Notes under the pieces: model-generated
Told to the model about the DNA's origin: nothing
Databases searched by the model: none
What the model saw: the letters and a program-made list of their open reading frames with translations, nothing else
Program-made: the position numbers and the translations under genes
Origin: Macrostomum lignano
Taxonomy: Eukaryota
NCBI GenBank assembly: GCA_002269645.1
Contig: NIVC01001196.1
Coordinates: forward strand, 1-64,000
DNA length: 64,000 nucleotides
Reading direction: 5' to 3'
Shown here: in pieces, positions 8,587 through 55,192 of the stretch
Layout of the letters: each line of letters opens with the position of its first letter
How positions within the stretch are numbered: position 1 is the stretch's first letter

Positions 8587-11500
8587 TTAATCCGGGAACC
8601 GCTGTCGAGTTTTGGTTCGATAGACGAGCAGTTTCCAAATGGCAACGGGTTCCTGAATTTATTCAATCGATTTTTAAGACCAATTTTCTACTAAACAGAG
8701 GAAGTGTTACTGTTTCAGATATATTACCTGTATAACGGCCTGTACAGCTACAGGTAAAGTACGGATCGGTGTACGCCAGAGTGCAGGTGCCGCCATTCAG
8801 GCACACAGGCAGCTCAGTGATGCCCTTGTCAGGCTGCAGGGTGAAGCAGTAGTCTGCAGCAGCTGAGCAGTACGGTGCGATGTAGGGCAGCGGGCAGAGG
8901 CAGGGCGGGCTGGCTGTGTAGTTGTTGCAGGTGCCGCCGTTGTAGCAGGTGACTGTTGAGCAGTTCGCAGCCTGAGTTTGAGCTGCAACGAGGTTGTTTA
9001 AAAACTAGTAGTAGGAGTTAGCAGAACACGGCCGCAGGAAATTCCGTGGAAATTCCGTCACTGGTTTACGTACTGGAGAGATGGCTCCTAGAGCCCTGAT
9101 CGCCTAAAACTTACAAGCCTTCGCTGAGTAGCAGGTATGGGGGAAGGATGAGCATTGCAACTACATGTATAGGATTTCATGTAAGCATAAAGCAGCGGTA
9201 GGAGCAGAAAAACGAGAAGCGCGTATGAATAAAATAAATAGTGGGTGCTGTGCGTATGTATATGGCCGTGTCTGACTTTTAAGATGGTATAGAGATGCAA
9301 CTGTTTTTTAATCATTTATGTATAGTAGAAGATACTGAAATTATAATAGGCTCGTATGCTTTTAAAAATTTGCCAATTCGCAGGTTTTTGTTTGCTTACT
9401 CTTTCGGCCTGGAGCTTCTTTTTTGCAAAGTATGGCTGCGCCTTCTTTAGAGATCAATTAAGTTGTAAACTGATTTAAGGTAGCCTTGAATTTTCTCCCC
9501 CTCCAGATAACGCATTGCAGCGAAGTGATATCGGGGTTGTCTGGCTGGCTCGATAGGGGCAATAAAGTTTTGGACTATTACTGTTAAAGATTATATTCCA
9601 AGTTGTTTTCGTCATAAAGCAACGGTTTCTATTATGCATGCGTCGGCATAACGTTTTGAAAAAGGACGAAATGGGCCCTTTCGTTTTTATAAGATAATTT
9701 AATCTTGAGGCCGAGGGTATATGGAGTCTACACTGGCTGCTTGTATTTACTTGTGAATAAAAGACCATTATAAACGTATAACGCTATGCATTGAACTGGA
9801 TCCTATATAAGATCTGCTGGCCCGTTACTGCTGATAGTAAATTTGAAAAGAATATAAATAGAGAGGAGCAGCAGCTGAAGATCAAGTAGCGATTATTAGT
9901 GAATGATTTCAAATTAGAATGTCGTCCGATTGGCAATACGAGGTGTGCATGACTTGTAAAAAATGCAAACAAGGTGGACTCCGACCGGGTCGACATAAAA
10001 ACTGCACGAACGTGACGAAGTGGAGTGTCTGCTGGCAGTGCTCAAAGGTTTCTCTATATGAAGCGAAGAAGAGCGCTAAGCAATCTAAGGCTCATCGGGG
10101 TCACCAATTGCTGCCTGGGACTAAAGACACAGCGCGATCTTTTCGACGAATGGTAATGGGAGCGGCGAGGCGACACATGGAGCATCAAACGGCGGAAGTG
10201 GCAGCAGCCAAGCAGCGATCGAGCGTGCTCAGTCAAGTAATTAATGGTGTAATTCAAGCTCGAAACGACAGCCTAAGTTCCAGCGATGAGTTCGTAGACG
10301 TAAATACTAGAGAACCCTCGATACTTCCTCAGCCAAACAATGGAATGGAAACTGAGACAGCTGACGCAGTGCAAGCCATTGTACCTATTAGACGTGCTCC
10401 ATCCATAAGAGGCAAGCAAATGGTTCAAATCGATAGTTCGATGATTGAAGAAGAAGGCGACGAGATGGAGGAGGACATCGAACTTGACGGCTTTGCTTCT
10501 GCTGCTGCTGGTGTCCCGGTTGGTGCCGACTCAGCTGCTGCTGCTAGTGTCCCGGTTGGCGCCGACTCAGCTGCTGCTGCTGGTGTCCCGGTTGGCGCCG
10601 ACTCTGCTGCTGCTGCTGGTGTCCCGGTTGGCGCCGACTCTGCTGCTGCTGCTGGTGTCCCGGTTGGCGCCGACTCAGCTGCTGCTGCTGGTGCCCCGGT
10701 TGGCGCCGACTCAGCTGCTGCTGCTGGTGTCCCGGTTGACGCCGACTCAGCTGCTGCTGCTGGTGTCCCGGTTGACGCCGACTCTGCTGCTGAGGCTGGT
10801 ATCCCGGTTGGCGCCGACTCTGCTGCTTCAACCAAAATTCCAGCCACAGTCACTGATGCAGCTGTTACTGTTGCAAATGGTCATGATGAGCTCAATGAGC
10901 TGCTAGCATCCATCGACCTGCCAACGACGACGATGACGCCGGCAAATGTTGCTGATATTAATGAAAATGCTGGTGCTAACTATTTTACTTTAAATCTGCT
11001 ATTGCCGCACGTGAGTGGAGTGGCTATGTTGTGCAAGTTGACGGCAATAAAATCACTCTTACCCCGATGTAATTTCCTATTTTATTTTCTCTGTACTCAT
11101 ACAAATTCGTTTTTATTTGGGTTGGTGTGGAGTGTGGACGTTGGTTACAATATATTAGAACCGTGGGTTGGTAAAGCATTCATGAGGATATTGGAGTAGA
11201 AAAAGAAATACTTGTGTGTGTGCACTATCCAAATATTAATATTCAAACGAAACCCATATCAGCTTCTGTTTTGCTCGTAATGGTTTTCAGGACTACTTCA
11301 AATGCTAGGGTGTGTTGCTATAGGGGATATAGGTTGATTAAATGGTTTTTATGATGTACTTTTCACCTAATATAATTGCTTAATAAACTTATTTAATGTT
11401 TCGAACTATTGCTCAGTGTTTTTTATACTTCTGCATGCATGCTGCAATTTCAAATGAAGCTTTTCGAGATAAGCGTGAATCAAACCAAATCAAATTTCAA

Positions 11501-14500
11501 TGTATCCAGCTGCTGTTAATTGTCAGGTAATAAACATTGCATGCCCTACTGAATCAAAATAAACTTGCTAGTAAAGCAAGCTAGCAAGCTCTTAGCGCGA
11601 ATAAGTAAACTTAATCATTAAATTTGCATATTTAAATGAAATATGGGTTTTGTTTTGATTTGAAAACACTTTCAGTCCATTCAAGGCGCTCCAGTTTTGG
11701 TGGACTACGCTAAGTCTGGCGAAGATTGGCCTATGACCAATGAGAGCTGGTCTGAGTTTTGTGAAGAAGAAGAAGACTGGTCTGAGACGGATGACGAAGG
11801 CTGGTCTGAGTCTGATGAAGAAGACTGGTCTGAGTCAGATGAAGAAGACTGGTCTGAGTCAGATGAAGAAGACTGGTCTGAGTCAGATGAAGAAGACTGG
11901 TCTGAGTCAGATGAAGAAGACTGGTCTGAGTCAGATGAAGAAGTAGACTGGTCTGAGCCCAAGGAAGACTTGTCTGAGCCAACTGATGCTAGCAGCAGCA
12001 CTGCCACAAACACCAGCACCAGCATCACCACCAGCATCGCAGGTCACATGGAGAATAAAGACAACGTTGAAAATGAAGGTATGAGCAAGTTTTCTCCTAA
12101 AGTTAGTTGTGTTTCTGAGCTTAATTATCATGATCTTAACCAATAACGAGCGAAAAATAGGATTCTTTGCAAAAGTCTCTCGATGAAAAGAATTTAAAGC
12201 TTCCTATAGCTTAGCCAATTTGAACTGCTTCATGATAAATTATAAGGAAATAATCTAAATCTGAAAAAAATAAAAGAATTCATATCATTAAATGAGTATA
12301 AGTCTGAGTATTACAGTTCAAAATGCACGAAAAAGTGAACTCTTAGAATAATTTGAGTTTGCAACAACCTTTTTAAAAATGCAGGTGGGAACTTCACAAA
12401 CAGAATCATCAGTGCACACAATGGAGTCCTCGAATCCATTCGAATTCGACAACAGCAACGCCAGCAAGCAGAACCTGGCCACGGCCAGGGTGATCATCAG
12501 GCTACTCCAGATGCATTCACCAGCGTAGCAGCTATGAGGTCAAACGTAGAGCGTATTCTATCCGAGAGACTGCTTGACAGGAGTAAATTGGTGCGTGCTC
12601 AATTGAGATTGAATGTACATATGCAGCGAATGAGAGGAGGTGAGATGGTGGCTGAAGAGGATAAGTGGATTAGCGTGCCCATGGGGCAGTTGGATTCAGC
12701 TGATGACTTTGAAGCCTGGTGGACTACTCAAGTGAATGGTTGCGAAAGAGTCATTGAATTGTTAAATACAAACGGTAGCGGCTGGGTGCTTGGTGGTGTC
12801 AACTTTGTTGACGTTTTTGTGTCATACGGTGACCGGATTCGCTACTATATTGGTCATGCTGACAAGTTTGAGCTACCAAGAGATCTTAAAGCTAAGCAAG
12901 CCGTTATAAATCCGCCTAGAAAAAGGTGATGATTGCTTCCTGTATGCTTGCATTGCCGTCTTGCACCACGATGATGACAGAATTCGCAAGGCTCCTCACC
13001 GACTCTCATCCTATCAGGCTTGGCTTCCTGGACTCGATTTGGAAGGAATTCCGAAGCCAATTCAACTTAGCAGCCTTGAACAAGTTGAGAAAAGAAATTC
13101 TAACGTGTGCTTCACTGTGCTGACGTGGAAGAATGGAACAGTGGAAGTTTTAAGACAGCCAAAGGTAGAAGTCGCCGAAGGAAGAATCGTAGTTCCACTG
13201 CTACTTTTTTTCAAAAGCCAACAACTCTGAAAAAGGACATTGGTGTGGGATTGTAAATCTCAACCGTCTGCTCAATAGTCATGATGGACTGCACCAGAGA
13301 AAATGGTGCGAGAGATGCTTGACAGGTTTCAAATCTACTGAGCGTCTTAGTGCTCATCGTGAAGATTGTTACCAATCAAACAGCTGTACGGTGAAAGAGA
13401 TTATGCCCACCAAAGAAAAGAGCATAATGTCCTTTACGAGCTATGAGAAAACAGTTTCTCCACCATTTGTAGTTTATGCAGATTTGGAGTCCTTCAATGT
13501 TCCCATGAACACTGAAATTCCAGCAGGGCTACAAAAAATTTCTCATCATACACCAGCAGCTGCTGGGTATCTGATTGTCCAAAGAGCAGGTGTTAAAGGA
13601 CCTGCACTCAGAGACTCCAAATCAATGTATGAAGCCTTTACAGCCTCTTCGACAGAGAACTGCATTGAGCAACTTCTTCTTTCTCTTGAACAGCTTGCGC
13701 GCGAAATTTATGAGTGGAACAGGAGCCACAGTTATCAGCCGAAGATTATTGATCCAAACGCTCAAAGCCTGTTTGAAGCAGCCGATACGTGCTATTACTG
13801 TCATGAGAAGTTCAATGAGGACACCATTTTAAAGGTTTGGGATCATGATCACCTGTCTGGTGAATTTCGAGGTGCTGCATGCTCCAAGTGTAACATTGCT
13901 GCTCAGCTAAAGCGACGCTATTTACCTGTTCTGTTCCATAACCTAAAGAACTACGACATGCATTTTCTCTTTTCTGTAGCACTGGGAAAAATGAAGCACT
14001 GGCGTCTAAGTGTTGTACCAATTACGACAGAGAAATACCTGTCTCTAACCGCCGAAGTGCAAGTTAATGAAGTCGTTATTCAAGGAAAAACTGTGCCACT
14101 CTATGCCACGATCCAATTTTTGGACTCTTTCCAATTTCTCAGCAGCAGTTTAGACTCTTTTATTAGAGATTTACCGAAGGATGAACGAATCCACACCGAA
14201 TCCCTAAAGGAGTTCTATCCCGCTCTCACTGATGTCACTCTTGAAGCCAAAGGTGTCTTTCCCTATGAGTTTGTACAAAGCACAGCTGAATTGGAGCTAA
14301 ACGAGCTACCACCTCGTCAGGAATTTTTCAGCACCCTCTCAAAGAGTGAATGCACCACCGAGCAGTATGAACGAGCGAGGAGGGCATGGGATGAATTTGG
14401 TGCAGCGAATTTAAAAGACTACATGCTTGCTTACCTCCAGCTTGATGTTAGGCAGCTTGCTGATGTCTTTGAGTCGTTCAGGCGTCTTAGTATTCTAGAT

Positions 14501-17500
14501 GATGGATTAGATCCAGTCCACTTCATATCCACTCCTGGATTATCCTTCTCTTCGGCTTTGAAAAGTACTGGAGTCAAGCTGGAGCTACTAACTGACAACA
14601 CAATGTATAGGATGTTTGAAGAAGGTATTCGTGGTGGTATGTGTTTTGTTAATGTACATCAGGTGGCGATGGAGAAGTCAGCAAATGAGTCAGCATCACT
14701 CATTCCTCTTGATGTCAATAATCTTTACGGTGTTGCGCTATCAATGCAGCTGCCCTACAAAGAATTCAAGTGGGTTGAGCCTGAAGAACTGATGACTTGG
14801 ACTGATGCCACTATTTTGAATCACCCAGACGATGCGCCAACAGCATTTCTGGTCGAGGTTGACCTGATTTGCCCACCCGAAATTCATGACAAAACGAGTG
14901 ACTTGCCACTGGCACCGGAGAAATCCCAACTGGAGTTTGCAGACTTTCCAGAGTTCATGCAAGATCTATGGCAACGTTTGAATCCAGATGGCCATAACTA
15001 TAATAGTTGTAAAAAACTGTTGCTAACTTGCTTTGACAAGCAGAGCTACGTCGTTCACAGCAGAACTCTGAAATTCTACATTGAGCAGGGAATGCTAGTC
15101 GCTAAATTTAAGCGAGCAATACAGTTCTCGCAGGCTGCTATCCTGGATCCTTACATTCGCTAGAATACTGAGCGAAGGATTGCATCAAAGTCAGAGTTTG
15201 AGAAGTTCTACTACAAGCTCAAGATTAATTCGGTATTTGGAAAGACGATGGAAAACGTCAGGAAACGGAGATTGATCAGAATCTGCAATTCCGAGGTAAA
15301 GGCCAGGATTTTGGCTTCAAAGCCCAATTTAAAAGAAGTCATTATCATCAACCAGGACTTGAGCATATTTGAGCTGAGCAAAACAACCGTGTGCCTGGAC
15401 AGACCAATTTACATAGGTCAGTGCGTCCTTGATTTATCTAAGTTGTTTATGTATTCGCTGTGGTACAACAAACTTAAACCGTGGTTTGAAGACGAGAAAG
15501 TTCGGCTACAGCTCTGTGGAGGTGACACAGATTCTTTTTTCCTTTGCATCAGGAATATTGACCCTGTGCAAGAGTTCCTGCAAGAGTTAATCAAAAGGCG
15601 GATTCTTGACACATCAAACTATGTTGACGGCCACCCGCTTAAGTCTACAGAGTTGAAAGCCAAACTCGGTTGTGTCAAGGATGAATCCTGCGGAATTGAG
15701 TACAAAGAGTGGATTCTCCTCCGACCAAAACTGTACAGTTTTCAAAGCTCCGCCGCTGCCGCTCATAAGAAGGCCGCAAAAGGAATTCAGAGAGCCGTAC
15801 TGAAGCAGCAAATTAATCACGCGGACTATGTTGCTGCATTTGAATCATTGAAGACGCTTGATGTTGTTACACACCGAATTGCAAGCCATCGACATGAAGT
15901 GTTCACAATTCGACAGAGGAAGCGAGCCCTCACCATCTGGGAAGACAAACGGGCCTGGATCAGCGCAAATGACAGCCTCCCGTTCGGCCACTTCCGTCTT
16001 GGCCAATCTGATGCACCATCCCGGAAGAGGAAGCGGCCTCCAGATCTTCAACAGTGACTAAACGTGAGGGATGCATCATTGACATTTATTTGAACGACTT
16101 ACGACGATTACATCATTTATTGCTATCCATAATCAAGCCAGTCTAATTCATTTTTTTCATACTTTCGTTTATCGACATTAAATTTCTCGACATTTTCCAA
16201 TCTTATATTATTGTTTATGAGCATATTCAAATTTATTTTAAACTAACGCATAGGCTTTGATTTACTTAAAATATCGCATGACTTAAAATGTACTCGTAGT
16301 TATTTGCTTTATTGCTCTTTTAAACTATCTGATAGCTTTTGTAATACGTTCAACATGCTGAAGTGTAATTGCTATGTTGTCATAGCCCATGTAATTACAT
16401 TCTCATGTTTTTAAGTCGTGTTTCGTTACAAACCTGTCATTTTGCTCATACCGGTAATTTCATCATCGCTCACTTCGTTGGCAACATTTGTGCTGAATCT
16501 GATATAGCTATTTTAACGCACATTTTTCCAATTGGTGTCAGGCAAAGGACCTTTTTTATTTTCCTTTCTTTTGAGCAATATTTAGCACTTTTTATTACAT
16601 CCATTTATTGTTTCCACTGCTGTTTTATGTTTGTCATATGCGTGTTTTAATTGGGAGTGTGTGTGTGTGTATGTGTGTGTTTTCATTAAATAATAAACTC
16701 ATGAAAAGAAGACAGAACGATTCATCTTTATTCATGCAAAAATTAGCTTAGTTATAAGCTTCCTTCTTTCCTAACTGTAATCATTTATTTTTACGCTGAG
16801 TTACAAATTACACGTTTTAATCGCATGAGATCTGTTTGCAATTGAAAAAAAGATCGAGCACCACTTAGAACAAAGGAGCCGCGGTGAAATAGCAAACATT
16901 TACAAAACTTCAGCTTGAAAATTAAAGCAGAAAAAGATTCAGGTTCATACTCAGCTTTTGGTAAATTCATAGACAGTTTTGGTAGGGACAATGCAGAACT
17001 GAGCGAAAGTTGGCCATGAGCAGTAATAGTTTTAATTCGAACACAAATAGTTTGATGAGGCAGCAGTTGAGCCGGCACTCTCCGATGCAGCATAGCCACG
17101 AAGCGACGGGCAGCCCTTTTGGCGTCTGCGTGAGTCTTGGCACCGCAGATGCTCAGTTGCCCAGTAGGGTAGAGTAGCAGAGTCACTCTGGGACTCCGCA
17201 TCCGCTTGATGAGCACCCGGGGCCAGACGGGCCGGTAGATCACATGAGCCATGCTGAGAGCCAGTTCCCGTAGAGGCAGCTGGGCGCCCCTGCCACCATC
17301 CAGCCTCAGATCCACTCCGCCAACCAGATTGGTCACTCTTAGGGCTGCAGCTGGTGGGCTCATTTCGATCCTTGACTTCTTCAGCAAATCTTCTGCTCGT
17401 GTGCCACGGACACTGCTCGCTTCTTAAGTTGATGCAGAACTTTGGCTTAAGCCAACTGTAGTGCAGCAACGAATTTCTCACTGCACAGCCAGTATCTGAA

Positions 17501-20500
17501 TCTTCAGTCGAGGGTGCTCCCAAATCTTCTAGGTTATAAACCTGTCTACCAAGCAGCTCAGTCAGGAAAATAGACTTCCTTTCCCCATTTGTCCAGATCG
17601 GACCACTGGCAATGCTCAGAATGTCTTCCGCCAGTTCCATGTACGGACGGGTTCCATCACTCCACTTAAACTGGTGCACACTCTTTGATAGCTGTCTGTA
17701 GTAAACTCGCATGTCAGGTGAGACTCTCTCCCATGGATACGGAGGTGCGTACACATGGTGAGCAATGCGGTAGCTTCCCGCTCTGATTTGAACAACTGCC
17801 AACTCCTTCACAACAAAGTTTTTGCTTGTGCTGTTGCACGGGAATCCTTGGAAGTCAATGTAGTTCATGATGCAGCTTTCCTTCGAAAATTTCGGAGTCA
17901 GTCCACCTTCTTATATACTTTTCTGGCAGGCAGTTTCAGCCAGGCTGTGTTGCTCCCGTACCCCTTGACTAGACTCGCCTGTTCTTTCTCCAGTTCACCC
18001 CCTCTGCTGGTTACCATTTTCTTCTTAACTGATTTACCAACAGCGGAAAGCGGAACATTAAGCTTTTTCTGCTGCAGCAAATCGATGAACTCGTTCCACC
18101 CAACTGGTTCACGCTCGCATGACGAATCCCTCACTGCGTGCTGAATCAAGTCCAGTATGTTTGAGGAAGGGATTGACGTGCCTGCGATTTCCACCTCCCC
18201 GTTTTCACAAACTCCAATCAGCTCTGGATTGGTGGACAGGATCGTCCATAGACTGCGAGCCCTGGTTTTGAATTTCTGTGGCACCGACTTGCTGATCTTC
18301 TCTTCCCAGGTGCTCATCTGGGGTGTCTCTGTTTTCATCAACTTGGCTTCAGCATTGCGTGCTCCTTCTTTTCCAGCGTGCTTGCGCTTGGCCAGCAAAC
18401 TTTGCATTGCACTTTGGTACATGGCGGTTTTCACATCTTCTGGATAATCTTCGGCATACAAGATGTCATCGCATTTCTTCTGAGCCTGCTTCAAGTCAGC
18501 TTCAGTGCTATTCTCATTTGGCTTCAAATTCTGCATCAACATCTCATACTCTGCTTTAGGAATCAGAACCATTTCTGAAAATTTGTTCATTTTGCTTCTT
18601 CTTCTTTACCAGCTTAAGCAGAATCGGGAGTATTTTGATGAAGCCAGCCTTCAACAAGTCTGTCTTTCTTCTTTGGTGAGTAATTTTTCGAATTATCTCT
18701 TTTGACTTTGCAAGAACAGCTTTTTCATCGAGAGAAAACGATAGATTGTTTTGTAAGAGATTATGGCAGGCCTCGACAAGAAAATAACGCACTTCTTTTG
18801 AACAATTTTTTATCAACAGCCGCTTGAAGCGCACGGTATATTTAGGTGACGCAAGAACCGCAAAAAGACCTTCGTGAGAATCAAGCACTTCCATAGCGAT
18901 GAAAACAATAGCCGATAAAAAACAAGCTTCACTTTATTAAGCAAATACAAGATGGGGTCGCTGGTTGGGCAGAATTCTGGCCCGTACTCGCAGCTCATCG
19001 GGAGTTGATGGGTGAAAGTCTAGGAACAGGTAGGCTCCCCTGTTCTGCGCGGTCACGTGCTTGAACACTGACAGCAGAAAGCCGGGCTTCTCTGTAAAGC
19101 ACTGTCTGCCCAGTGCTGCAATCTGCAGTTGGTCTCTGGGGTTTTTCAAGATAGCTAAATACATTACATTCAAGCTCATTGTTCGCGACTCTTTTCCCTT
19201 GAAAAATATATTCTGAGTCAGCATCACCAAAAAGCACGGCAAGTGATGTGCGATTCCTGTGAAAAAATTTCGCATTGAAGCAGAATTTGAAGTTTCCTCT
19301 ATTAAGTCATCGAAAACAACCAGGTCATTGGGCCTAAGTGCTGCCTCGATGTTGGTGGAAAATCCCTGGCGCAGCTGCACACCTAGGCTGCTCAGTTCTG
19401 CATGGCCTGCCTGTGAGATCCCATAGTACCACAGAACTCTGCCAGGCTTCACATCAAACATGACGTCTCTGTACTGGATCAGGTGTTTGACAAAGGTTGT
19501 TTTTCCTGCATTGGTGGGCCCGCAGACAATCATGCAGCTTCCCTGCCTGAGGCGGAGATCGTAGCAAACTCGCTTTTCTTCCATGTCTAATGCATAAATA
19601 TAGTTCTAGAACATCTTTTTCTTAAGTTGGCTTCAAACCTCTGTAAGATTCTATCATTCAAATGATTTTTTTCATTAGCATGCAAATGCTTCAGAATCCC
19701 CTCAAATGACCGATTGAACAGAAACTTTTGATAAGCAAAATAGATGCAAAACATTCCGCATTTATTAGAGTTAGCACATTGAAATCTGTTTAGATTGTGT
19801 AAGCACTGGAATTGTGCTTACATCGAAGCGAAAAAACAACGGCCTCCTCTCGTCTCAACCGGTTCTATCCAGCCAGACCAGCTCTACACTAAAGGGCAGA
19901 TAACAAAGCTGAGGTTCGAAGGCCAAGCCAGCAGCCTGCGAACGCGTGACACAGTAGACTCGCAGCAATGCTTGGGGGGGGGGGGGTAATAGGGTTGCCT
20001 AACAACGGGACAGAGAAAAATGCTCGAGCGATAACCCTGCCCCGCTCAAACTATGCATTGCTCTTCATTTTGTCAACTAAACCAGTTTGCTTGCTTGACT
20101 ATAAAATACACTGTCTTGAATAATTTGCGGCAGAGAGAGATTCAGAGATGTGAGCCTCACACTCATAACAGGGCCCTCAGAGGCCAGTGTGTTCGAAAGT
20201 CTTTCTGACTTGTGAGCAGAAGATAACAGGAATAAAAACTGTTATAGATTGCTTCGGAGCCAAAAGCCAGTTGTTTTAATCTCTCGAAACAAATTATAAA
20301 CCACAGATAAAATTTCAGGTTCCCAGCCGAGGGAGTTGAACAGCTCAATGCAATTTCCTTGCCCAGCATAGCATACCACCCAGTGACCAAATGAGCCATT
20401 GAGCTGAAGTAGAACAAAAACAAACTTGTTTTCAAGAGAAATTGATGATCGAAATTTTCTTTTTACATTCAAGGACAGAGAATTTTTATAGCGCAAATGT

Positions 20501-23500
20501 AAAGTAATTATAGAAAATTTTTGGCAAGGCAAAATTTTTTTGGCTAGATTGAATAGTTTAATTGCGTCCATGCCAGTTAAGAGGAATAGTCCAGCAAAAG
20601 CTCCCGGTGCTTGGTGACCTCAATCAGCGAGTCATACAGGCACATAGCAATCAGGGACACCGCTTCGTCCAGAGCCTGTCGGAAGCGAATCTCCAGCCGC
20701 AGGTTGCCCTCCTTCTGTCCGTACCACAGAGCCGCTCCCTCGGGTGTGAGATCGAATGCAAACACCGTGGTGTTGTTGGAGAAGAGCTGGTAGGGGATCC
20801 ACGGCACCGAATTTGTGGGGCTTGCAGATTGACAGCTTTTCAGGTAGTGCAAGTATTCTCTTACGAAGGAATTGTTTTCAGGTGTGAAGGCGCCGTGGCA
20901 CACGGTTTCCCCACCTTTCTTTAGAGCCAACCGGCTGAGGTTGAAGCTCTGGAACTGGAACGGGCTCGCGTGATGATGACCGTTGAATGCACGGTGGCTC
21001 ACGAAGGCCAGCATGATGAACTTCGGCAATTTTCCATGAGTGAATCCTTCAATGTTTTTAGATTGGATGTCCTGGGGTAGGATGAAGTTCTGCATTTCAG
21101 TTCGCTCGATGGGATACAGTGCATTTTGGTTTGTCAGCCCCTGCTCATGGGCCAGGCTGATGTGGGGCACCACTTTGACTCGGCGAAGATGCAGAATGCT
21201 GTGAGAGATTTCCATTCGGTATGCCGCGTTGTTTGCATTCGGGCTTCTGATGGCAAAGGCCCCATCGCTGGGTACCAGTTTGATGTGCAAGTGCAGATTG
21301 CTTAGCAGAAACACTGGGCACTGGAAAACATCGCTGAAGAGCGGCCCCGCATACTCCATCCATCGGGATTCCCTGTGGCTCTCCGTGTGCTCTTCAGCTG
21401 CCGAGTTCGGCTCCAGGAAGCCAGCAGGGTAAAGTTTTAGTTGCTGGGCATCGGATGAGCTCATTAGTGCTTTGAAGTACGCATGGTAGGGATAGAGCTG
21501 GTCTCCACCAGACACCACTCGCTGGTTAATGCTTACAATTACATCTAAGAAGGCTGTAGACAAAACAAAATTTTCTGGGTGCACATCACTGTCTCTGCGC
21601 TCGGTGATGATGCCATCTCCATCTCGAACATCCTCCCTCAGCAAACCCCCATCCAGTCTCACAAGGCGGCAGCGAATATAAAGAAAAGAATTAGGCAGAT
21701 CTGTGTATTCATCGGCAGATTGGTGGCAGTCAAATTCAATGGGGGAGTTTGCAGTAATGGAATTTACTGGGTGAATATCAACATAAGTAGCTTTTTCAAT
21801 GCAGGTTTGTAGAACGGGCGTCTTAAATAAATCAAGTCTGGGATTGAATCCGTAAGCCATGTCTATGACAGAGAGTCGAGCACGCGTTTCACAGTTTTCT
21901 TGCTGACTTTTCGCTTTCGCTTTCCTCCGCCTGCTGCATTCTTCTTTGCTTTCGTCTTCCTATTCTTAAGCTTTTTCCCACTAGCCTTGCTTGACCTCTT
22001 ATTGCGATTTCCACCAGTTGCCTTTCGGGTGCCCTTCTTCTTCTTCAATCGTTTCGGACTTGCTTCAGTATTTCTTTTGCGCCTGACGTTGCTAAGCGTT
22101 GAAGATGATGATGTAGCCGCTGGCGGAGGCTGGTATGTCATGATCCCTGGGAAGCTCCCACAGCCATAGAGTGCAGGCTTTTCGTGTGCTGTCCTCACCC
22201 CCGAATATTGCTGGATCAGCTGCTGGTAGTTCATTGAATGCGTTTCTCTCGAATCTGAACTGTGAGCAGAACAGGGCTGTGAGTCTGTGCAATCAGTAGG
22301 CAACCATAGATGTCCCGCAGCTGAACTCGAATGCTGTGAAGAAGACTGATTCGTTGAATCGGGAAGAATATTGTTTTCTTAAATATTTTTGACAGGTAGT
22401 TGCCCCATTGAATGTTGCCGTTCACTCCGACTGTTCTCAACAGGGAGCCCAAGTTGCAATTAGTTGACTCAACGATACTGCAGTGCACATTGATTAAGCT
22501 GGTGCGCGGGCAGCCAATGCAGTGCTCGGACACGCGGCTCCCTGGCTGGATTTTCACAGCCTGGCTTCCAAATCCCAGCCAATGCAGAATTTTGCTGGAT
22601 GGAAGAAACAGCTCTGCTCTCGCAGTGTTGTTGTGCACCACAGTTCGTGAGTTGCGGATTTCGAACTTCATACCGAATTCCCTGTTGCCACTACGCCCCA
22701 TCAGGCCGGACTCATCGGCCTCCATCTCAGACTCCCTGTCACTCATTGCATCAAAGAACAGCGAATCAGAGTTGGCCAGCAGCTCATTCAGGCGCTCTAC
22801 CAGCTCCTCCACTCTAGCAAATCGTCCGGGTTGAAGAACCAGGGCCTCATGCTCTCTTCCATCTGAGACAGTGAAGCAGTAAGGCTCGTCAACATTGAAC
22901 CATGCAGCAGGCGGATGGATTTCAGCCAGACCTGCCTCATATTCCACATTTCGATCCAAGTAAATAGGTGAAGACAGGTAAAAATTAAAGTCACTAGGAG
23001 TACCTTCAGCATGCTCACTGTTAATCAAAATAGTTCGCATTATAATCATAAACTACATGATGAGGGATGTGTCAAAGCTAAACCTTTCTTAAGTCTTTTT
23101 CATCCACCCAGCCTGTCGAATCGTAGCCGGCCCACTTGACAAGATAGCGAATTTTCCCTCTTTGCTTTTGTGTCTTCAACACTTTTTCAATCTCGTATAG
23201 TCGCTGTGAGTCCGGCACCGCCTGCAGCTCGTGCTCGTGAAAGAGGCCTTGAATCTCTTCTCCCTTCATGTCTCGGATCTTGTACATGTAAGGATAATGT
23301 TTCGGAGCTTTTGCAACTACAGTGTACACTTCCTCACTCCAGTTTGCTTTGTACCCTTTTTTGAATAGCCGGGGCGCGTTAGAAATTCTTACAGTTTGAT
23401 TTTCACTGAACTTTGGTTTCCTGACTTTATCCAAAGTTTCTATTGCCTTGCCATCATACAGGTTCATCCACACTTCCGACTCATTTTGCTTGCAAACATT

Positions 23501-26044
23501 TCTTGGCGCCATTCTGATGCTTCTGTGAAAAGTAGCATTGTACGACTTCACTAACTTTGGCAGCACATCTACCCAGTGCAGAGTGCTGTTGTGAGTGAAG
23601 TATCGCCACATTTTATTCTTCAAAGTTCGGTTCCATCTTTCTACAATCGCTGCTTTCTGCTCGCTGTTTGTTTTAAACGCTAAAATGCCATTCTCTATGC
23701 AGCTCTGTCGAAAGCTTGAGTTGACAAATTCTTTCCCCTGATCTGAACGAACTGTTCGCGGCCTGCGCTTCGTTCTCTTCAAAATTGCCTCGAAAGCAGA
23801 CCGCACTTCTCCTGCTGATTTATTCTTTAGTGGCTTGGCCCAAGCAAACTTTGACAGCACATCGATGCATGTGAGGATATACTTGTATCCGTGATTGTAC
23901 TTTGCGAACGGAATCATTTCTACCAGATCCAGTTCCCACTGATCATCCATAGCTCGAACTACAATTGGTGCTCGGGGATAGTTTCTTCTTGATGGCTTAT
24001 GTAAAGTGTAAACTGCCTGTTCGTTAATCCAATTCTTAACAGATTTTTCTCCCACTTTGATACCTTGTTTTCGAGCCTCATTCAGAAGTTTGTTGCAACC
24101 AGAAAAACTGGCAGGCTGCTCGTGATTAAAGAATATCTTTTCCATTTGCTAAAAAAATCAACTGAGACAGCTTTCTTTCCTAAATGCTTAAGGGCCTGCG
24201 ACGAATAAAGTTTGATAGAACAACAGTGTATTTTACATGCAGTAACATATTATACGCTAAAGCAAGCATTTTAGCGGAGCACAACACAGTGATTCGATTC
24301 AGAACAGTTACAGACAAAACAAAAGGAAACTGAGTAAAGTTTAAATGAAATCAAGTTGTTAGTCAAATTGTTGAAAATGAAGTCACGCGAACTTCTGAAT
24401 AAAATTTGATTTTTTTACCACAATTTTTTCTCGATTATTATAATTTTTATATGCGCATGGTAATCAAAGAAATACAAAATGCGAACTATCGCTGTCATTT
24501 AAAAACAAGTTCACTCATCATCTTCGTCCGAGTTCGGCAGCTCGTCACGGGGTATCCACCTCGGCCTCTTGACCGCATCCTGCCTGCGCAGAGCCCACGG
24601 TTGCTTGCGCTTTCTGCTGTTGTTCACCGCAGCCGCATGAGCCCGGAATTGATACCATACCGGATCTTCTTGCAAGTTTGTGTCCTCTGACGGGATGTTC
24701 AGAGGACAGAGGCGTTGAAGTCACCGGCTCAGTAACGATCGTCAGGTCTGTTGGTGAGCGGGCCTCTTCTTCACCCTCATTCGGCTCAGTCTTGACGGGA
24801 AGCTTCACGGTGACCTCTTCATCGTCGTCAGATGAGCTCAGCTCATAGTTCATTCGCATGCTTTGAGAGAGCTCTGCCAGCTGCTTGTCAAACCAACCGG
24901 AAGCGTGCCACAGTTTTTGCCACAAGAGCGGAGACAGAGGCACTGTGTTGCGTCTCAGAAACTCCTCGCAACAGTCCTCGGGCAGTCGCTTCAACCAAAT
25001 TGTTCCTTGTCTAACCTCAATAAACTTGTCAAAGCCCAATTTCACAACCTTGGTTTCACCGCTTAGAGCAGCCTTCACGAGCGAGCGCTTTACCTCCTTC
25101 AGTTTCGCCCACTGATGCGTATTCAGATTGAAGCCGGGAACTCCAGGCTTGAGGCTGGCGCTGCTGCCATGCCGAAAAAACTTCCTTATGGCGATGAATT
25201 TTTGCCCTTCAAATTCCTGCACCTGTACCTTGTAGCCTTCGCCGATGTCCATGATTCACGTGAAGTCTTCAGAGATTAAAAAGTGAAGTATGATCTTAAA
25301 AATGCTTTTCAAAGCTGGCCCTTTTATATCCTCATGGCGGAGTGGGGTGGGTGCCGGAGGGTGGGTGAATGCTAGGAAAGGGTTGGCCAGTATACATTAG
25401 CCTCCGCCACTCCAGATGCACAGCACTTCACACTGCAGGCACAGTGCTGGGCTGATTTCAATTCAAGCAAGCATATTACAAACATAAAACAGCAGCGGCT
25501 CCACCCAATTTCAGTGGCTTTCACTGCGACAGGCCGAAAGAGTAAGCAAACAAAAACCTGCGAATTGGAAAAATTTTAAAAGCATACGAGCCTATTATAA
25601 TTTCAGTATCTTCTACTATGCATAAATGATTAAAAAACAGTTGCATCTCTATACCATCTCAAAAGTCAGACACAGCCATATACATGCACACTATACGCGC
25701 AGCACCACCATTTATTTTATTCATACGCGCTTCTCGTTTTTCTGCTCCTACCGCTGCTTTATGCTTACATGAAATCCTATACATGTAGTTGCAATGCTCA
25801 TCCTTCCCCCATACCTGCTACTCAGCGAAGGCTTGTAAGTTTTAGGCGATCAGGGCTCTAGGAGCCATCTCTCCAGTACGTAAACCAGTGACGGAATTTC
25901 CACGGAATTTCCTGCGGCCGTGTTCTGCTAACTCCTACTACTTAAAGTTCTTACAAGATTTCCTGCAAACCTTTATTGTTGACGATTTCTGGGACTTTGT
26001 CACTCACCTATTAGTGACAGTAGAATGCAAGCCATTGCCATCAT
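8587..26044 (-). CDS. EGF-TM paralog 1 (exons 26008-26044 signal, 8728-8982 double EGF, 8587-8652), first intron interrupted by the Polinton
   Basis: GT-AG phase-1 junctions give MMAMACILLSLI-AQTQAANCSTVTCYNGGTC...CSCTGRYT-GTRCHL; the downstream TM exon (~8380-8560) is not cleanly in frame. Confidence 0.7.
9007..9411 (+). repeat. Polinton left terminal inverted repeat
   Basis: Reverse complement of 25530-25942; outer ~230 bp identical by eye, inner part with several substitutions and an indel. Confidence 0.95.
9853..9860 (+). promoter_or_regulatory. Candidate TATA box of the Polinton left arm
   Basis: TATAAATA 58 nt upstream of the ATG at 9919. Confidence 0.5.
9919..11010 (+). CDS. Polinton left-arm ORF1 (N-terminal Cys/His cluster, acidic segment, 33-bp Ala-rich repeat); probably exon 1 of a spliced gene
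   Basis: 426-aa ORF 9919-11199; CMTCKKC...HKNC...CWQC; ~10x AAAGVPVGADS; phase-0 donor CAC|GTGAGT at 11011, after which the sequence becomes AT-rich. Confidence 0.65.
11676..12078 (+). CDS. Acidic Trp-repeat exon (DEEDWSES repeats, 24-bp unit)
   Basis: ORF 11697-12146 lacks a natural early ATG; phase-0 acceptor CTTTCAG| at 11675 and phase-1 donor AAG|GTATGA at 12079. Confidence 0.6.
12385..16057 (+). pseudogene. polB: Protein-primed family B DNA polymerase (pPolB), interrupted by two +1 frameshifts (~12920, ~13208) and an in-frame TAG (15161-15163)
   Basis: ExoI VVYADLES, ExoII FHNLKNYD, ExoIII YLQLDV, motif A LDVNNLYG, motif B KLKINSVFGKTMENVR, motif C GDTDS, KLGCVKDE; endonuclease-VII-like DHDHLSGEFRGAACSKCN insert. 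Confidence 0.95.
16784..16789 (-). terminator. Polyadenylation signal directly after the TBP-like stop codon
   Basis: AATAAA on the minus strand 1 nt after TAA 16791-16793, followed by the AT-rich convergence zone 16060-16790. Confidence 0.5.
16791..17363 (-). CDS. TATA-binding-protein (TBP)-fold protein encoded by the Polinton, ~190 aa
   Basis: Both TBP repeats align by eye: VTNLVGGVDL...LPLRELA...YRP...LIKRMRSPRVTLLLYPTGQLSICGAKTHADAKRAARRF and AEYEPESFSALIFKL...LLFHRGSFVLSGAR, versus TBP LQNIVSTVNL...[26 protein letters not shown]...AARKY and SSYEPELFPGLIYRM...LIFVSGKVVLTGAK; ATG at 17363. Confidence 0.9.
   Translation of the reverse strand: MSPPAAALRVTNLVGGVDLRLDGGRGAQLPLRELALSMAHVIYRPVWPRVLIKRMRSPRVTLLLYPTGQLSICGAKTHADAKRAARRFVAMLHRRVPAQLLPHQTICVRIKTITAHGQLSLSSALSLPKLSMNLPKAEYEPESFSALIFKLKFCKCLLFHRGSFVLSGARSFFQLQTDLMRLKRVICNSA
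17032..17868 (-). CDS. Polinton accessory DEDD-like exonuclease-fold protein; domain ends ~17430 and the ORF runs on over the TBP-like gene
   Basis: YIDFQGF...FVVKELA...HHVYAPPYPW...WSDG...VYNLEDLGAP...CAVRN pattern, recalled as typical of Polinton accessory ORFs. Confidence 0.65.
   Translation of the reverse strand: MNYIDFQGFPCNSTSKNFVVKELAVVQIRAGSYRIAHHVYAPPYPWERVSPDMRVYYRQLSKSVHQFKWSDGTRPYMELAEDILSIASGPIWTNGERKSIFLTELLGRQVYNLEDLGAPSTEDSDTGCAVRNSLLHYSWLKPKFCINLRSEQCPWHTSRRFAEEVKDRNEPTSCSPKSDQSGWRSGSEAGWWQGRPAASTGTGSQHGSCDLPARLAPGAHQADAESQSDSATLPYWATEHLRCQDSRRRQKGCPSLRGYAASESAGSTAASSNYLCSN
17898..18590 (-). CDS. Conserved Polinton hypothetical protein (230 aa)
   Basis: MVLIP...GEVEIAGTSIPSSNILDLI...PVGWNEF...L.VP pattern, recalled from Polinton conserved ORFs. 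Confidence 0.75.
   Translation of the reverse strand: MNKFSEMVLIPKAEYEMLMQNLKPNENSTEADLKQAQKKCDDILYAEDYPEDVKTAMYQSAMQSLLAKRKHAGKEGARNAEAKLMKTETPQMSTWEEKISKSVPQKFKTRARSLWTILSTNPELIGVCENGEVEIAGTSIPSSNILDLIQHAVRDSSCEREPVGWNEFIDLLQQKKLNVPLSAVGKSVKKKMVTSRGGELEKEQASLVKGYGSNTAWLKLPARKVYKKVD
18556..18894 (-). CDS. Conserved small basic Polinton protein (112 aa)
   Basis: EACHNLLQNNLSFS...LAKSKEIIRKI...GFIKILPILL pattern; canonical position next to the ATPase. Confidence 0.7.
   Translation of the reverse strand: MEVLDSHEGLFAVLASPKYTVRFKRLLIKNCSKEVRYFLVEACHNLLQNNLSFSLDEKAVLAKSKEIIRKITHQRRKTDLLKAGFIKILPILLKLVKKKKQNEQIFRNGSDS
18937..19584 (-). CDS. A32/FtsK-like genome-packaging ATPase
   Basis: Walker A GPTNAGKT, Walker B LVVFDD, LTQNIF and SRTMSLN...KNPRD motifs; AATAAA overlaps the stop codon. 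Confidence 0.95.
   Translation of the reverse strand: MEEKRVCYDLRLRQGSCMIVCGPTNAGKTTFVKHLIQYRDVMFDVKPGRVLWYYGISQAGHAELSSLGVQLRQGFSTNIEAALRPNDLVVFDDLIEETSNSASMRNFFTGIAHHLPCFLVMLTQNIFFKGKESRTMSLNVMYLAILKNPRDQLQIAALGRQCFTEKPGFLLSVFKHVTAQNRGAYLFLDFHPSTPDELRVRARILPNQRPHLVFA
20163..20571 (-). pseudogene. Adenain-like maturation cysteine protease, degenerate
   Basis: GHWV and IELFNSLG motifs in the expected position after MCP; no Q-x-S-x-x-CG catalytic-Cys motif in any frame; ORF stops at 20242. Confidence 0.65.
20577..21860 (-). CDS. Double jelly-roll major capsid protein (427 aa, intact)
   Basis: LDLFKTPVLQTCIE...HPVNSITANSPIEF...EYTDL...LY; YPYHAYF..L; P.FIMLAFV...AFNG...SPFQFQ; FAFDLTP...G.LRLEIRF. 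Confidence 0.95.
   Translation of the reverse strand: MAYGFNPRLDLFKTPVLQTCIEKATYVDIHPVNSITANSPIEFDCHQSADEYTDLPNSFLYIRCRLVRLDGGLLREDVRDGDGIITERRDSDVHPENFVLSTAFLDVIVSINQRVVSGGDQLYPYHAYFKALMSSSDAQQLKLYPAGFLEPNSAAEEHTESHRESRWMEYAGPLFSDVFQCPVFLLSNLHLHIKLVPSDGAFAIRSPNANNAAYRMEISHSILHLRRVKVVPHISLAHEQGLTNQNALYPIERTEMQNFILPQDIQSKNIEGFTHGKLPKFIMLAFVSHRAFNGHHHASPFQFQSFNLSRLALKKGGETVCHGAFTPENNSFVREYLHYLKSCQSASPTNSVPWIPYQLFSNNTTVFAFDLTPEGAALWYGQKEGNLRLEIRFRQALDEAVSLIAMCLYDSLIEVTKHRELLLDYSS
21863..22234 (-). CDS. Lys/Arg-rich putative core (DNA-condensing) protein
   Basis: ATG 22234 overlaps the mCP TGA; LYGCG motif followed by a long K/R-rich C-terminal half; position between penton and MCP. Confidence 0.65.
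   Translation of the reverse strand: MNYQQLIQQYSGVRTAHEKPALYGCGSFPGIMTYQPPPAATSSSSTLSNVRRKRNTEASPKRLKKKKGTRKATGGNRNKRSSKASGKKLKNRKTKAKKNAAGGGKRKRKVSKKTVKRVLDSLS
22231..23049 (-). CDS. Minor capsid (penton-like) protein
   Basis: INS...TPSDF.FYLSSPIYL...YEAGLAEI.PPAAWFNV; INVHCSIVES...LLRTV; IRVQLRD. Confidence 0.85.
   Translation of the reverse strand: MIIMRTILINSEHAEGTPSDFNFYLSSPIYLDRNVEYEAGLAEIHPPAAWFNVDEPYCFTVSDGREHEALVLQPGRFARVEELVERLNELLANSDSLFFDAMSDRESEMEADESGLMGRSGNREFGMKFEIRNSRTVVHNNTARAELFLPSSKILHWLGFGSQAVKIQPGSRVSEHCIGCPRTSLINVHCSIVESTNCNLGSLLRTVGVNGNIQWGNYLSKIFKKTIFFPIQRISLLHSIRVQLRDIYGCLLIAQTHSPVLLTVQIREKRIQ
23078..24145 (-). CDS. Retroviral-type (rve) integrase with C-terminal chromodomain, intact
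   Basis: YTLHKP; D-D-E residues in WELDLVEM / RSDQGKEF / IVERWNRTLK; YEIEKVL...RYLVKWAGY chromodomain. Confidence 0.95.
   Translation of the reverse strand: MEKIFFNHEQPASFSGCNKLLNEARKQGIKVGEKSVKNWINEQAVYTLHKPSRRNYPRAPIVVRAMDDQWELDLVEMIPFAKYNHGYKYILTCIDVLSKFAWAKPLKNKSAGEVRSAFEAILKRTKRRPRTVRSDQGKEFVNSSFRQSCIENGILAFKTNSEQKAAIVERWNRTLKNKMWRYFTHNSTLHWVDVLPKLVKSYNATFHRSIRMAPRNVCKQNESEVWMNLYDGKAIETLDKVRKPKFSENQTVRISNAPRLFKKGYKANWSEEVYTVVAKAPKHYPYMYKIRDMKGEEIQGLFHEHELQAVPDSQRLYEIEKVLKTQKQRGKIRYLVKWAGYDSTGWVDEKDLRKV
24545..25252 (-). CDS. PC4/Sub1-like ssDNA-binding / coactivator protein with tandem PC4 folds and a Ser/acidic tail
   Basis: DIGEGYKVQVQEFEGQKFIAIRKFF...LKPGVPGFNLNTHQWAKLKE matches the PC4 core (VSVREFKGKVLIDIREYW...[20 protein letters not shown]); second weaker copy VKLGFDKFIEVRQG...VPLSPLLWQKL; then SSSDDDEE. 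Confidence 0.8.
   Translation of the reverse strand: MDIGEGYKVQVQEFEGQKFIAIRKFFRHGSSASLKPGVPGFNLNTHQWAKLKEVKRSLVKAALSGETKVVKLGFDKFIEVRQGTIWLKRLPEDCCEEFLRRNTVPLSPLLWQKLWHASGWFDKQLAELSQSMRMNYELSSSDDDEEVTVKLPVKTEPNEGEEEARSPTDLTIVTEPVTSTPLSSEHPVRGHKLARRSGMVSIPGSCGCGEQQQKAQATVGSAQAGCGQEAEVDTP
25321..25328 (-). promoter_or_regulatory. Candidate TATA box of the Polinton right arm
   Basis: TATAAAAG on the minus strand 69 nt upstream of the PC4-like ATG, with G/C-rich boxes at 25337-25410. Confidence 0.55.
25530..25942 (-). repeat. Polinton right terminal inverted repeat
   Basis: Reverse complement of 9007-9411. Confidence 0.95.
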
Positions 26045-45900: not shown

Positions 45901-47438
45901 AGACGAACTAAGCGTTCACGCAGGCCTTCTGCTCCGGGGAAACAGAATCGTGATCCCGGCAGAGCTTCAGCAGCTTACGATCGGTTTAGCGCACCAGGGC
46001 CACCTCGGACAGAAGAAGACGTGCGACCGACGACCGTCTGGTGGCCCGGCATGTCCAAGCAGGTCGAGGCGGTCGTCACTAACTGCCTCCCGTGTCAAGC
46101 GGCCCGGACCGACGGCGCCGTGAAACACCCGCCGATGCAGCCGACGCCGCTTCCGTCGGGGGCCTGGAAATCGCTCAGCGTCGACGTGTGCGGACCATTC
46201 CCAACGGGCGAGAACGTAGTTGTCTTGGTGGACTACTTCAGCCGCTACCCGGACCTCTACGTGGTGCGCAGCCTCACCAGCGCCAGCGTCATCAACTGCG
46301 TCATTGCCTCATTCAGCCGCTTCGGTGTGCCGCAGCAGATCACTACGGACAACGCCACCTACTTCACGAGCGAAGAATTCAACGTGTTTCTGGACGGCCT
46401 CGGGTTCGACAGCGCAGGGTCACCCCACTCTACCCGGCGGCGAACGGCGAGGTGGAGCGCTTCAACCGCAGCCTCAACAAGGCCATCAACGCCGCCACGG
46501 CCGAAGGCAACGACTGGCGGCGGGCGATCCACGAGTGGCTGCTCGGATACCGCAACTCTGTGCACCGAGGCACCGACCGCACGCCCAACGACCTCATGTT
46601 CAACCGAGAGACCGGCGACATCCTGCCATCTGGCCTGACAAAGCAAACCGGCAGCTCTGGACGGCAGCTGCAGCTCCACGACCGCTGCTACAAGCAGGCG
46701 ATGCGCAAGGCGGCCGACACGCGGCGTTCGGCTGCGCCACACGGCATCCTGGCAGGCGCCCGCGTGCTGCTCAGAAACCGCGGCAAGGCCAAGCTGCGCT
46801 GTCCGTTCGACCCGCGGCCTTGGCTTGTCAAGGCAGTCAGCGGCGGCGCCCTGACTCTGCAACGCGGCACGGCAGTCATTCGGCGGCATGTGACCGAGAC
46901 GAAGCCGCTTTGTGAGTGCCCCTGGGACCTTGACGAGCTGGACGGCGATCAGCGGCCGGGGGCGCCTGTGACAGAGGCAAATTCGGCCAACGACGGTCCG
47001 ATTGCGCAGAGGCCTCATCCCAGGACAGCAAAGCAGCCCGTCTGCTACAAGCAGTGACTTGATTCGAACTGAGCCGGAACGCTGTCAAAGATCGGCATGC
47101 TTTAATTGTTTAAGTATTTAATCGTTCGAAATCAAAAAAAATTGAGACTGTTTTACTAATTAATTTTTTTAATCCTTCACGTTGTTTCTTGTCCAATTGT
47201 CGCAATGAAATTTTAAACCCTCTCGTATTGGACTTTTCTTTTGCTTTGGGGGAGAGATGTGGTGCGCAGCCTATGCGTGTACAATGCCCTTTCTCTTGCT
47301 CTCTAGCCAACGTGCTCAGTACCCCAATGTATTGCGTAACTCATAGCTGCACGTCGGCAGCTGCGTGAATATATATCGCAAATATACGGCTCTTAGAGGC
47401 CAAGATTCTTACCCGCCAAGCGGACTACGAGCACTACA
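42933..47438 (+). mobile_element. Gypsy/Ty3 LTR retrotransposon (Mag-type), full length
   Basis: 181-bp LTRs TG...CA (42933-43113, 47258-47438; 1 mismatch), 5-bp TSD GGAAG, PBS-like TGGCGTCGCAG, PPT GGGGGAGAGA. Confidence 0.97.
43114..47057 (+). pseudogene. Gypsy gag-pol (double CCHC, protease, RT, RNase H, integrase) with three frameshifts (~43320, ~46030, ~46405)
   Basis: CIRCGVPGHRTC / CERCGKRNHLVRAC, LVDSGAD, WIHDD, VVDASPVG...TDHKPL, HQGHLG...CLPC, VDVCGP / TDNAT / EVERFN. Confidence 0.93.
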
Positions 47439-49105: not shown

Positions 49106-49111
49106 TCTATC

Positions 49112-55100: not shown

Positions 55101-55192
55101 TTAGGTGGGCGCCCCTGTCTCTTAGGTGGGCGTCCCTCTCTTTTAGGTGGGCGCCCCTGCTGTCTTTTAGGTGGGCGCCCCTGTCTCTTAAG
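49112..55192. repeat. 6-kb GC-rich minisatellite, 21-24-bp unit GGTGGGCGCCCCTGTCTCTTA with recurring variant cassettes
   Basis: Directly visible; the WAPLSLR ORFs are artefacts. Confidence 0.97.

Follow-up and report, generated by a model that had tools for sequence, protein, structure and literature searches.

Why should a mobile element that has no RNA polymerase carry a gene for a TATA-binding protein (TBP), and what might that protein read? The question is raised by a 64,000-nucleotide stretch of Macrostomum lignano DNA (contig NIVC01001196.1, positions 1 to 64,000), referred to as the window herein. The window contains a 16.9-kb element bounded by inverted repeats at 9007-9244 and 25705-25942, which are 100% identical over 238 nt and 95.9% identical over about 410 nt. 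The element is a Polinton/Maverick, with long terminal inverted repeats (TIRs) ending in AG...CT, a protein-primed DNA polymerase B (pPolB), an rve integrase and a packaging ATPase. Its left arm comprises a 426-aa ORF and pPolB, and its right arm, on the opposite strand, runs from a PC4 ORF through the TBP gene. Four of the six letters of the 6-bp target-site duplication match in this copy, and a 99%-identical sister has a clean TCATTT duplication. The copy has decayed in part, as pPolB shows frame changes upstream of 13403 and an in-frame stop at 15161-15163, and a protease-like ORF that is 172 aa long in sister families is broken by an insertion. Pfam returned no match for the capsid and protease candidates, and their labels (major capsid, minor capsid and protease-like) are assumptions that we make from Polinton gene order; the basic ORF at 21863..22234 is presumably core-protein-like. 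The features of the element are as follows.

9007..9410, forward strand: left terminal inverted repeat, beginning AGTAGTAG
9804..9811, forward strand: canonical TATATAAG, a candidate early promoter 115 nt before the first left-arm ORF
9919..11199, forward strand: 426-aa ORF with a Cys-rich N-terminus and a repeat region
12534..16057, forward strand: pPolB, broken copy (PF03175, E 3.9e-15)
16784..16789, reverse strand: AATAAA directly after the TBP stop
16791..17363, reverse strand: TBP homologue of 190 aa with both repeats, an altered DNA face and an invariant EPE stirrup
17012..17019, reverse strand: junction at TBP codon 116-117, the probable recombination point, with a jump in sister divergence from 2-3% to 26-40%
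17032..17868, reverse strand: 278-aa ORF with an N-terminal RNase T/DEDD-like fold of ~145 aa and a tail over TBP codons 1-110
17421..17428, reverse strand: CTTAAGAA, 65 nt upstream of the TBP ATG and within the exonuclease-like ORF
17898..18590, reverse strand: conserved Polinton ORF, 230 aa, with CTTAAGCT 28 nt upstream (18611-18618)
17908..17915, reverse strand: TATAAGAA, part of TATATAAGAA, 47 nt upstream of the exonuclease-like ORF
18556..18894, reverse strand: conserved ORF, 112 aa, with CTTAATAA 47 nt upstream here and CTTAAGAA in two sister families
18937..19584, reverse strand: packaging ATPase with a Walker A motif and a weak Pox_A32 match, CTTAAGAA 42 nt upstream (19619-19626)
19794..20247, no strand assigned: 454-nt multicopy insertion breaking the protease-like ORF in this copy (an assembled joint skips the 454 nt)
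20242..20571, reverse strand: truncated, presumably protease-like ORF
20577..21860, reverse strand: likely major capsid protein, 427 aa, with CTTAAGAA 110 nt upstream (21963-21970)
21863..22234, reverse strand: basic 123-aa ORF
22231..23049, reverse strand: likely minor capsid protein, with CTTAAGAA 44 nt upstream (23086-23093)
23078..24145, reverse strand: rve integrase with a chromodomain (PF00665, E 7.5e-14; PF00385, E 7.6e-5), CTTAAGCA 47 nt upstream (24185-24192)
24545..25252, reverse strand: ORF with a PC4 (p15 coactivator) domain (PF02229, E 1.1e-7), canonical TATAAAAG 76 nt upstream (25321-25328)
25529..25942, reverse strand: right terminal inverted repeat

A sequence-only reading of the window had described an intact ORF of ~190 aa with both TBP repeats, lying between the TIRs and followed directly by AATAAA, and each of these points was borne out. 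The frame is open from ATG through TAA over 190 codons, it lies between the inverted repeats given above, and the AATAAA begins 2 nt downstream of the stop. Pfam matched PF00352 to the ORF twice (E 3.7e-24; 84.8 bits versus a cut-off of 22.9), and all 35 distinct PDB sequences matched by phmmer were TBPs or TBP fusions (best E 1.7e-14). An AlphaFold2 model, built from 11 aligned rows with host TBP and TRF2 among them, was a full saddle with a pLDDT of 91.5. The top structures returned for this model by VIA-align were human 5fur_A, yeast 7o4i_O and Sulfolobus 1mp9_B; cellular TBPs scored Z 19.5-19.8 (human 19.8) with an rmsd of 2.0-2.6 Å over 175-176 residues, versus at most 8.6 for unrelated folds. 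By its two repeats and saddle fold, the element ORF is a member of the TBP family (PF00352).

The gene recurs throughout the host's own genome, where we found 152 TBP matches. Among the best 97 of these, 95 were near full-length and 73-100% identical to the element TBP (family A). Another 17 near-full-length open copies, about 38% identical to family A, reside in Polintons with a different gene order (family B). Since host TBP and TRF2, which are single-copy genes, were each found three times in this assembly, the element counts overstate copy number. Seven further TBP homologues were present in other assemblies, and proteins 70-89% identical to the element TBP carry the Macrostomum lignano name in their sources; scans of viral and metagenome sequences found no related loci. 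When the flanks of 10 other pPolB sites were searched, one gave a TBP-profile match (E 2.7e-5; hhalign 87.7%, E 3.4e-6). The frame in this third Polinton family (family E) had no Pfam match and no in-frame ATG before residue 47, and is likely a remote TBP on the basis of the profile matches. An AATAAA-type signal lay near the TBP stop in 11 of 13 distinct family-A copies versus none of 16 family-B copies.

The TBP gene is under purifying selection. Among eight family-A copies, dN/dS over TBP codons 8-110 did not exceed 0.30 in 27 of 28 pairs; over codons 111-184, dS was unsaturated in 19 of the 28 pairs, and these gave a dN/dS of 0.07-0.31. Identity was 51/173 (29%) to the host TBP core and 49/170 to host TRF2, so the element protein is no closer to TRF2 than to TBP. 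In a 15-row tree the 13 element rows split from host TBP and TRF2 with support of 100/99, TRF2 being a long branch, and orthology with host TRF2 was not recovered. An absent TBP fold, sister elements lacking the gene and dN/dS near 1 had been named beforehand as outcomes that would count against the reading; instead, Pfam, the model and VIA-align all returned the fold, sister elements carry the gene, which is not a one-off capture, and dN/dS is well below 1 (mostly 0.05-0.3). The TBP is real, selected and widespread among this host's Polintons.

The DNA-binding face was compared across 12 homologues drawn from families A and B, using yeast numbering transferred through the phmmer alignment with an assumed offset. 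Kept in all 12 were N69, V71, T112, L114, F190, F207 and the acidic stirrup E186-P187-E188, which contacts TFIIB in canonical TBP. Changed in all 12 were F99 to Pro, F116 to Tyr, K120 to Gln, V122 to Ser/Thr, T124 to Cys, Q158 to Lys, N159 to Thr, V161 to Thr, P191 to Ser/Thr/Asn, V203 to Lys (a position counted back from F207) and V208 to His. In element numbering, T11, G16, P48, Y65, Q69, S/T71, C73, K111, T112, T114, K155 and H160 are found in every sequence. The four intercalating Phe (F99, F116, F190 and F207) read Pro, Tyr, Phe, Phe throughout, and no sequence has Pro at position 191; the element TBP does not possess the residue set of a canonical TATA-binding TBP (the four Phe, the N69/N159 pair and P191). 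As the new residues are fixed across proteins that are only 30-38% identical, they suggest a selected new surface rather than decay.

Several details of this face had been called by eye in the sequence-only reading. The alignment agreed on the YEPE stirrup, on both repeat-2 intercalating Phe (F190 and F207) and on the replacement of the second minor-groove Asn by Thr (N159 = Thr112). The first-repeat Phe pair, given as W/P and Y, was right for F116 (Tyr65), and "W/P" resolves to R98 = Trp47 and F99 = Pro48. This ungapped register was given by phmmer, by hhalign and by equal loop lengths in the model, with MAFFT alone introducing a gap. We rejected a placement of the Pro at A100 with reversed TBP asymmetry, as phmmer, the model and hhalign all place Pro48 at F99. 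The basic H2 helix holds for family A and fails for family B, in which H2 reads EEALAETEKIV, and the GGRGA insertion is genuine but limited to family A.

Most capsid-arm genes are preceded, at 28-110 nt, by a strand-specific word, YWTAAGAA. In the combined sequence of the element in the window, one distant family-A element and family B, the upstream windows, which reach from 15 to 130 nt before starts, contained 13 CTTAAG in a total of 3,220 nt versus 0 in 18,959 nt elsewhere, making it the top 6-mer (P 1.2e-11), where the windows were set after the word had been seen, one family-B start was mis-set and the family-B integrase was left out. The form [ACT][AT]TAAGA[AG] stood before 5/10, 6/10, 6/10 and 5/8 genes in four elements, with 0 antisense matches. 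In the window, seven of the eight CTTAAG sites sit 28-110 nt ahead of a start, and YWTAAG precedes 7 of 10 genes, a number matched in 0 of 2,000 shuffles (shuffle mean 1.1). The word tracks starts rather than stops, the copy upstream of TBP being about 400 nt from the stop of its enclosing ORF.

The word also differs between families. The site before TBP is CTTAAGAA in 13/13 distinct family-A copies and a perfect TATAAAAG in 15/16 family-B copies, and the first gene of each arm has a canonical TATA box upstream. Words in family B start with C or T and take the forms TATAAGAA, CATAAGAA and TATAAAAG, while family E, which keeps the Pro (ETFPQ), has TATAAG ahead of 5 of 8 arm ORFs. In a pPolB family without a TBP match, which is unrelated and AT-rich, NWTAAG stood before 2/7 and 1/7 starts and no common word was found. 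Contigs from runs whose RNA origin is only our guess were flat and spanned the gap between TBP and polB.

The TBP gene shares its DNA with the 278-aa ORF at 17032-17868, absent from the sequence-only reading, which covers the first 110 TBP codons on the same strand in another frame. A 293-aa homologue in family B overlaps 129 TBP codons. In 26 of 29 distinct copies the overlapping frame ran for 109 codons or more without a stop, and synonymous resampling gave P 0.014 in family A and P 0.002 in family B. The first 145 residues resemble RNase T/DEDD folds, and clusters of look-alikes are 156-219 aa long and mostly arthropod; a structure model was uninformative (pLDDT 31) and PHROGs gave no match. 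The tail is poorly conserved, its own-frame dN/dS exceeding 1 in all 27 computable pairs, with no purifying selection. An exonuclease-like gene apparently received TBP at its end, and the candidate TBP promoter lies inside that gene. Long frames fusing the two were also seen. A programmed exonuclease-TBP fusion was rejected, as these frames switch at differing codons (about 20, 25, 45-50 and 58) and lose the first strand, and we read them as decay or assembly error.

The TBP gene is also internally mosaic. Divergence from six sister copies jumps from 2-3% to 26-40% at codon 116-117, and repeat 1 is tracked by the capsid-arm genes and repeat 2 by pPolB. As an independent run yielded contigs that fork at the same three bases, the junction is not an artefact of one assembly. 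Chimeric TBP genes are still in frame and retain the DNA-face residues. These patterns suggest that elements recombine at TBP codon 117. Lower dS in repeat 1 as a pure effect of dual coding was mostly rejected, since adjoining non-overlapping genes had similarly low dS in five pairs and the step in dS is accounted for by recombination; a residual, roughly twofold drop in repeat-1 dS was left in two distant pairs (0.42-0.60 versus 0.7-1.6).

How might the altered face and the word be connected? According to one study, repeat 2 of TBP reads the TATA box's 5' half, Pro191 excludes non-T at position 1, I194, V203 and L205 lie at position 2, and wild-type TBP can accommodate G at positions 3 and 6 (PMC1636458). 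Loss of Pro191 would then admit C at position 1, and Lys at V203 would change position 2. Families A and B, without Pro191, often begin the word with C, while the Pro-keeping family E uses TATAAG, and this covariation of residue 191 with the word in three lineages is suggestive. We infer from these sequence comparisons that YWTAAGAA may be a promoter read by the element TBP. Our main reading, to which we assign a probability of roughly 0.6, is that the element TBP replaces host TBP at the variant word and works as a late-promoter TBP in the manner of herpesvirus ORF24. Host machinery would first transcribe the early genes from canonical TATA boxes, these genes being the ones beside the terminal repeats (the 426-aa ORF and PC4, joined in family B by TBP). 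Next, the element TBP would occupy YWTAAGAA on the capsid arm and would recruit RNA polymerase II and, through its kept stirrup, host TFIIB. The capsid, packaging and integrase genes would be transcribed as a late class, perhaps with assistance at initiation from the element PC4. The sequence-only reading had proposed a virus-specific promoter-selectivity factor, and the invariant new DNA face together with the shared variant word argues for that proposal. Counting against a late-acting TBP, the family-A TBP gene itself lies behind the variant word. A more tentative picture, to which we would not yet commit, is that animal Polintons run a minimal early/late cascade on a bare, re-specified TBP that co-evolves with a private TATA word, its half-saddles being reshuffled at a fixed junction so that one moves with the capsid arm and its partner with the polymerase arm.

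Other explanations of the protein and the word were weighed against this late-promoter reading. The word could be a real promoter that is read by host TBP or by the late machinery of a helper virus, leaving the element TBP free for a different task, for instance at the termini, which it might bind, or in Pol III-type transcription. The word contains TAAG, and TAAG late promoters occur in baculovirus-like viruses; moreover, family B, family E and the exonuclease-like gene of the window use TATAAG-type words. Since wild-type TBP tolerates G at position 6 (PMC1636458), host TBP by itself may suffice to read TATAAGAA and the TATAAG words. CTTAAG, however, breaks the position-1 T that Pro191 enforces, and host TBP keeps Pro191 whereas the element TBP lacks it in 12/12 sequences, which makes this explanation unlikely in our judgement. 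A decoy role, in which the protein would bind TFIIB, NC2 or Mot1 and damp down host transcription or defence but read no DNA itself, is quite improbable. The invariant EPE stirrup and the loss of F99 and N159 would suit such a role, and TRF2 can repress through TFIIA sequestration, as described in PMC3142196. Yet the concave DNA face, rather than being degenerate, is conserved better than any other surface between families only 30-38% identical, the basic H2 patch is missing in family B, and a decoy leaves the common upstream word unexplained. The earlier suggestion of a decoy for TFIIA/TFIIB/NC2 is, with the DNA face conserved and no H2 patch in family B, the weaker of the two functions then proposed.

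We consider it very unlikely that the word has nothing to do with TBP and serves as an RNA-processing signal at which a spliced leader joins a polycistronic transcript. The host trans-splice acceptor YTNCAG, as given in PMC8629364, is one letter off CTTAAG, and the arm genes are packed on a single strand; against this, not one of the listed words includes CAG, the family-B forms are TATAAGAA, CATAAGAA or TATAAAAG, and the sequence upstream of the words is purine-rich. Almost no weight is left, finally, for TBP as a passenger whose frame survives only because of the overlapping ORF or because it was copied recently, a reading that the sequences refute as far as they go. The overlapping frame does span repeat 1, and there are many near-identical copies, in numbers inflated by the triplication in the assembly. 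It is nevertheless the TBP frame that is under selection (dN/dS mostly 0.05-0.3), with none seen in the overlapping one (above 1 in all 27 computable pairs), and repeat 2, free of overlap in family A, is under purifying selection as well.

Relative to cellular TBP, the element protein keeps the two-repeat saddle, N69, V71, L114, F190, F207 and the EPE stirrup. It differs in being 29% identical to the host core, without an N-terminal tail and borne by a mobile element, and in carrying F99 Pro, F116 Tyr, N159 Thr, V161 Thr, V122 Ser/Thr, P191 Ser/Thr/Asn and V203 Lys. Like TRF2/TBPL1 it is a divergent TBP paralogue that has lost part of the Phe set and kept the stirrup; unlike the element TBP with both repeat-2 Phe, host TRF2 retains one of the four Phe together with P191. 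The closest functional parallel that we draw is the beta/gammaherpesvirus viral TBP, KSHV ORF24, which reads TATTWAA late promoters with a polar DNA face and host Pol II, turns V122 and V161 polar and requires all four Phe (PMC12529657). Both have a virus-type TBP fold, a more polar face and a variant TATA word before structural genes, a pairing shown for ORF24 and inferred here. ORF24 is large, with an N-terminal domain that binds Pol II and a set of five partner factors, and keeps all four Phe and P191 (PMC12529657), whereas the element protein is a 190-aa bare TBP core with a TFIIB stirrup, and its word is YWTAAGAA. Judging by its model, which has neither the Pol II-binding N-terminal nor the extended C-terminal domain, it is not a member of the ORF24/UL87 family. 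As F99 is Pro and ORF24 requires all four Phe, DNA bending by repeat 1 may be weak.

Giant-virus TBPs were matched by Foldseek (best E 4.4e-11), and mirusviruses carry a TBP according to PMC10132985. Unlike the element TBP, these nucleocytovirus and mirusvirus proteins, at most 20% identical to it, belong to large viruses that own an RNA polymerase, and the 17-kb element has none. TBP had been thought to lie outside the canonical Polinton gene set; that novelty is lowered by Starrett et al., who label a TBP, without comment, in an adintovirus-like MELD virus in the legend of their Fig. 5 (PMC8502044; bioRxiv 10.1101/697771), so a pPolB element with a TBP-like gene has appeared in print before. 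The available text of that paper names no element, residues, promoter or function for it, and one supplement file had no match for TBP, TATA, Macrostomum or PC4. The vertebrate Mavericks paper (PMC8097293) mentions neither TBP nor TATA in its available part. In the openly accessible articles and preprints searched, we found no account of a Polinton TBP beyond the Starrett legend, nor of its function or word.

The literature searched does not address how Polintons, which have no RNA polymerase, time the expression of their capsid genes. A dedicated TBP with a matching word offers a direct test of that timing and supports a virus-like life cycle. The proteins are candidate natural TBPs of altered specificity in an animal amenable to experiment, its three lineages being unlike one another at the residue presumed to set TATA position 1, and the word could guide the search for starts and for TBP-dependent lineages in other Mavericks. 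If the more tentative picture of an early/late cascade is true, this would be the smallest known viral system that reprograms Pol II promoter choice.

The window copy of the family A Polinton lacks a clean target-site duplication because its flanks (9001-9006 versus 25943-25948) agree at only 4 of 6 letters, and the copy may be recombinant or mutated. An Endonuclease VII-like zinc domain lies within its protein-primed DNA polymerase B (pPolB) at 13769-13900 (PF02945, E 3.7e-8). A 454-nt multicopy insertion at 19794-20247, whose contig depth was very high in runs only guessed to be RNA, most likely represents a SINE or another small transposon that is active. Elsewhere in the window, a long GC-rich repeat array with strong AT skew occupies 49000-55500, and a 21-nt-period repeat was found at two distant, mutually inverted sites (4200-6600 and 60000-61000). 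Further features of the window and of the comparison stretches (L-numbers) are listed below.

Features of the window and of comparison stretches
Window 24545-25252, minus strand: PC4/p15 coactivator domain gene, family A
Window 43622-46123, plus strand: LTR-retrotransposon pol ORF, 833 aa (protease, RT, RNase H)
L166:6443-7057, L180:2315-2929 and L182:1101-1715: TBP-like frame of the family E Polinton
L158-L165 (C506, C2506, C2322, C925): additional pPolB element family

The family E frame has no early ATG and starts with TTTTCAG, which agrees with the host splice-acceptor motif; this frame may be spliced. Genes for a deoxynucleoside kinase and a dUTPase are further cargo of the family E Polinton (L166:7312-7749 and L167:2774-3463). 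The host TBP core (L051; C70, C713, C1301) and TRF2 core (L057) are each one intronless open frame.

The additional pPolB family carries an A32-like ATPase and a match resembling adenovirus protein-X; tblastn showed no relation between it and families A, B and E, and no TBP match was found in it.

The PC4 gene is present in both family A and family B (window, L031 and L036 taken together), adjoining TBP in family B, and a weak PC4 match occurs in one more pPolB family (L170:6582-7076). Judged by its sequence, PC4 is a second transcription factor of host type aboard these elements.
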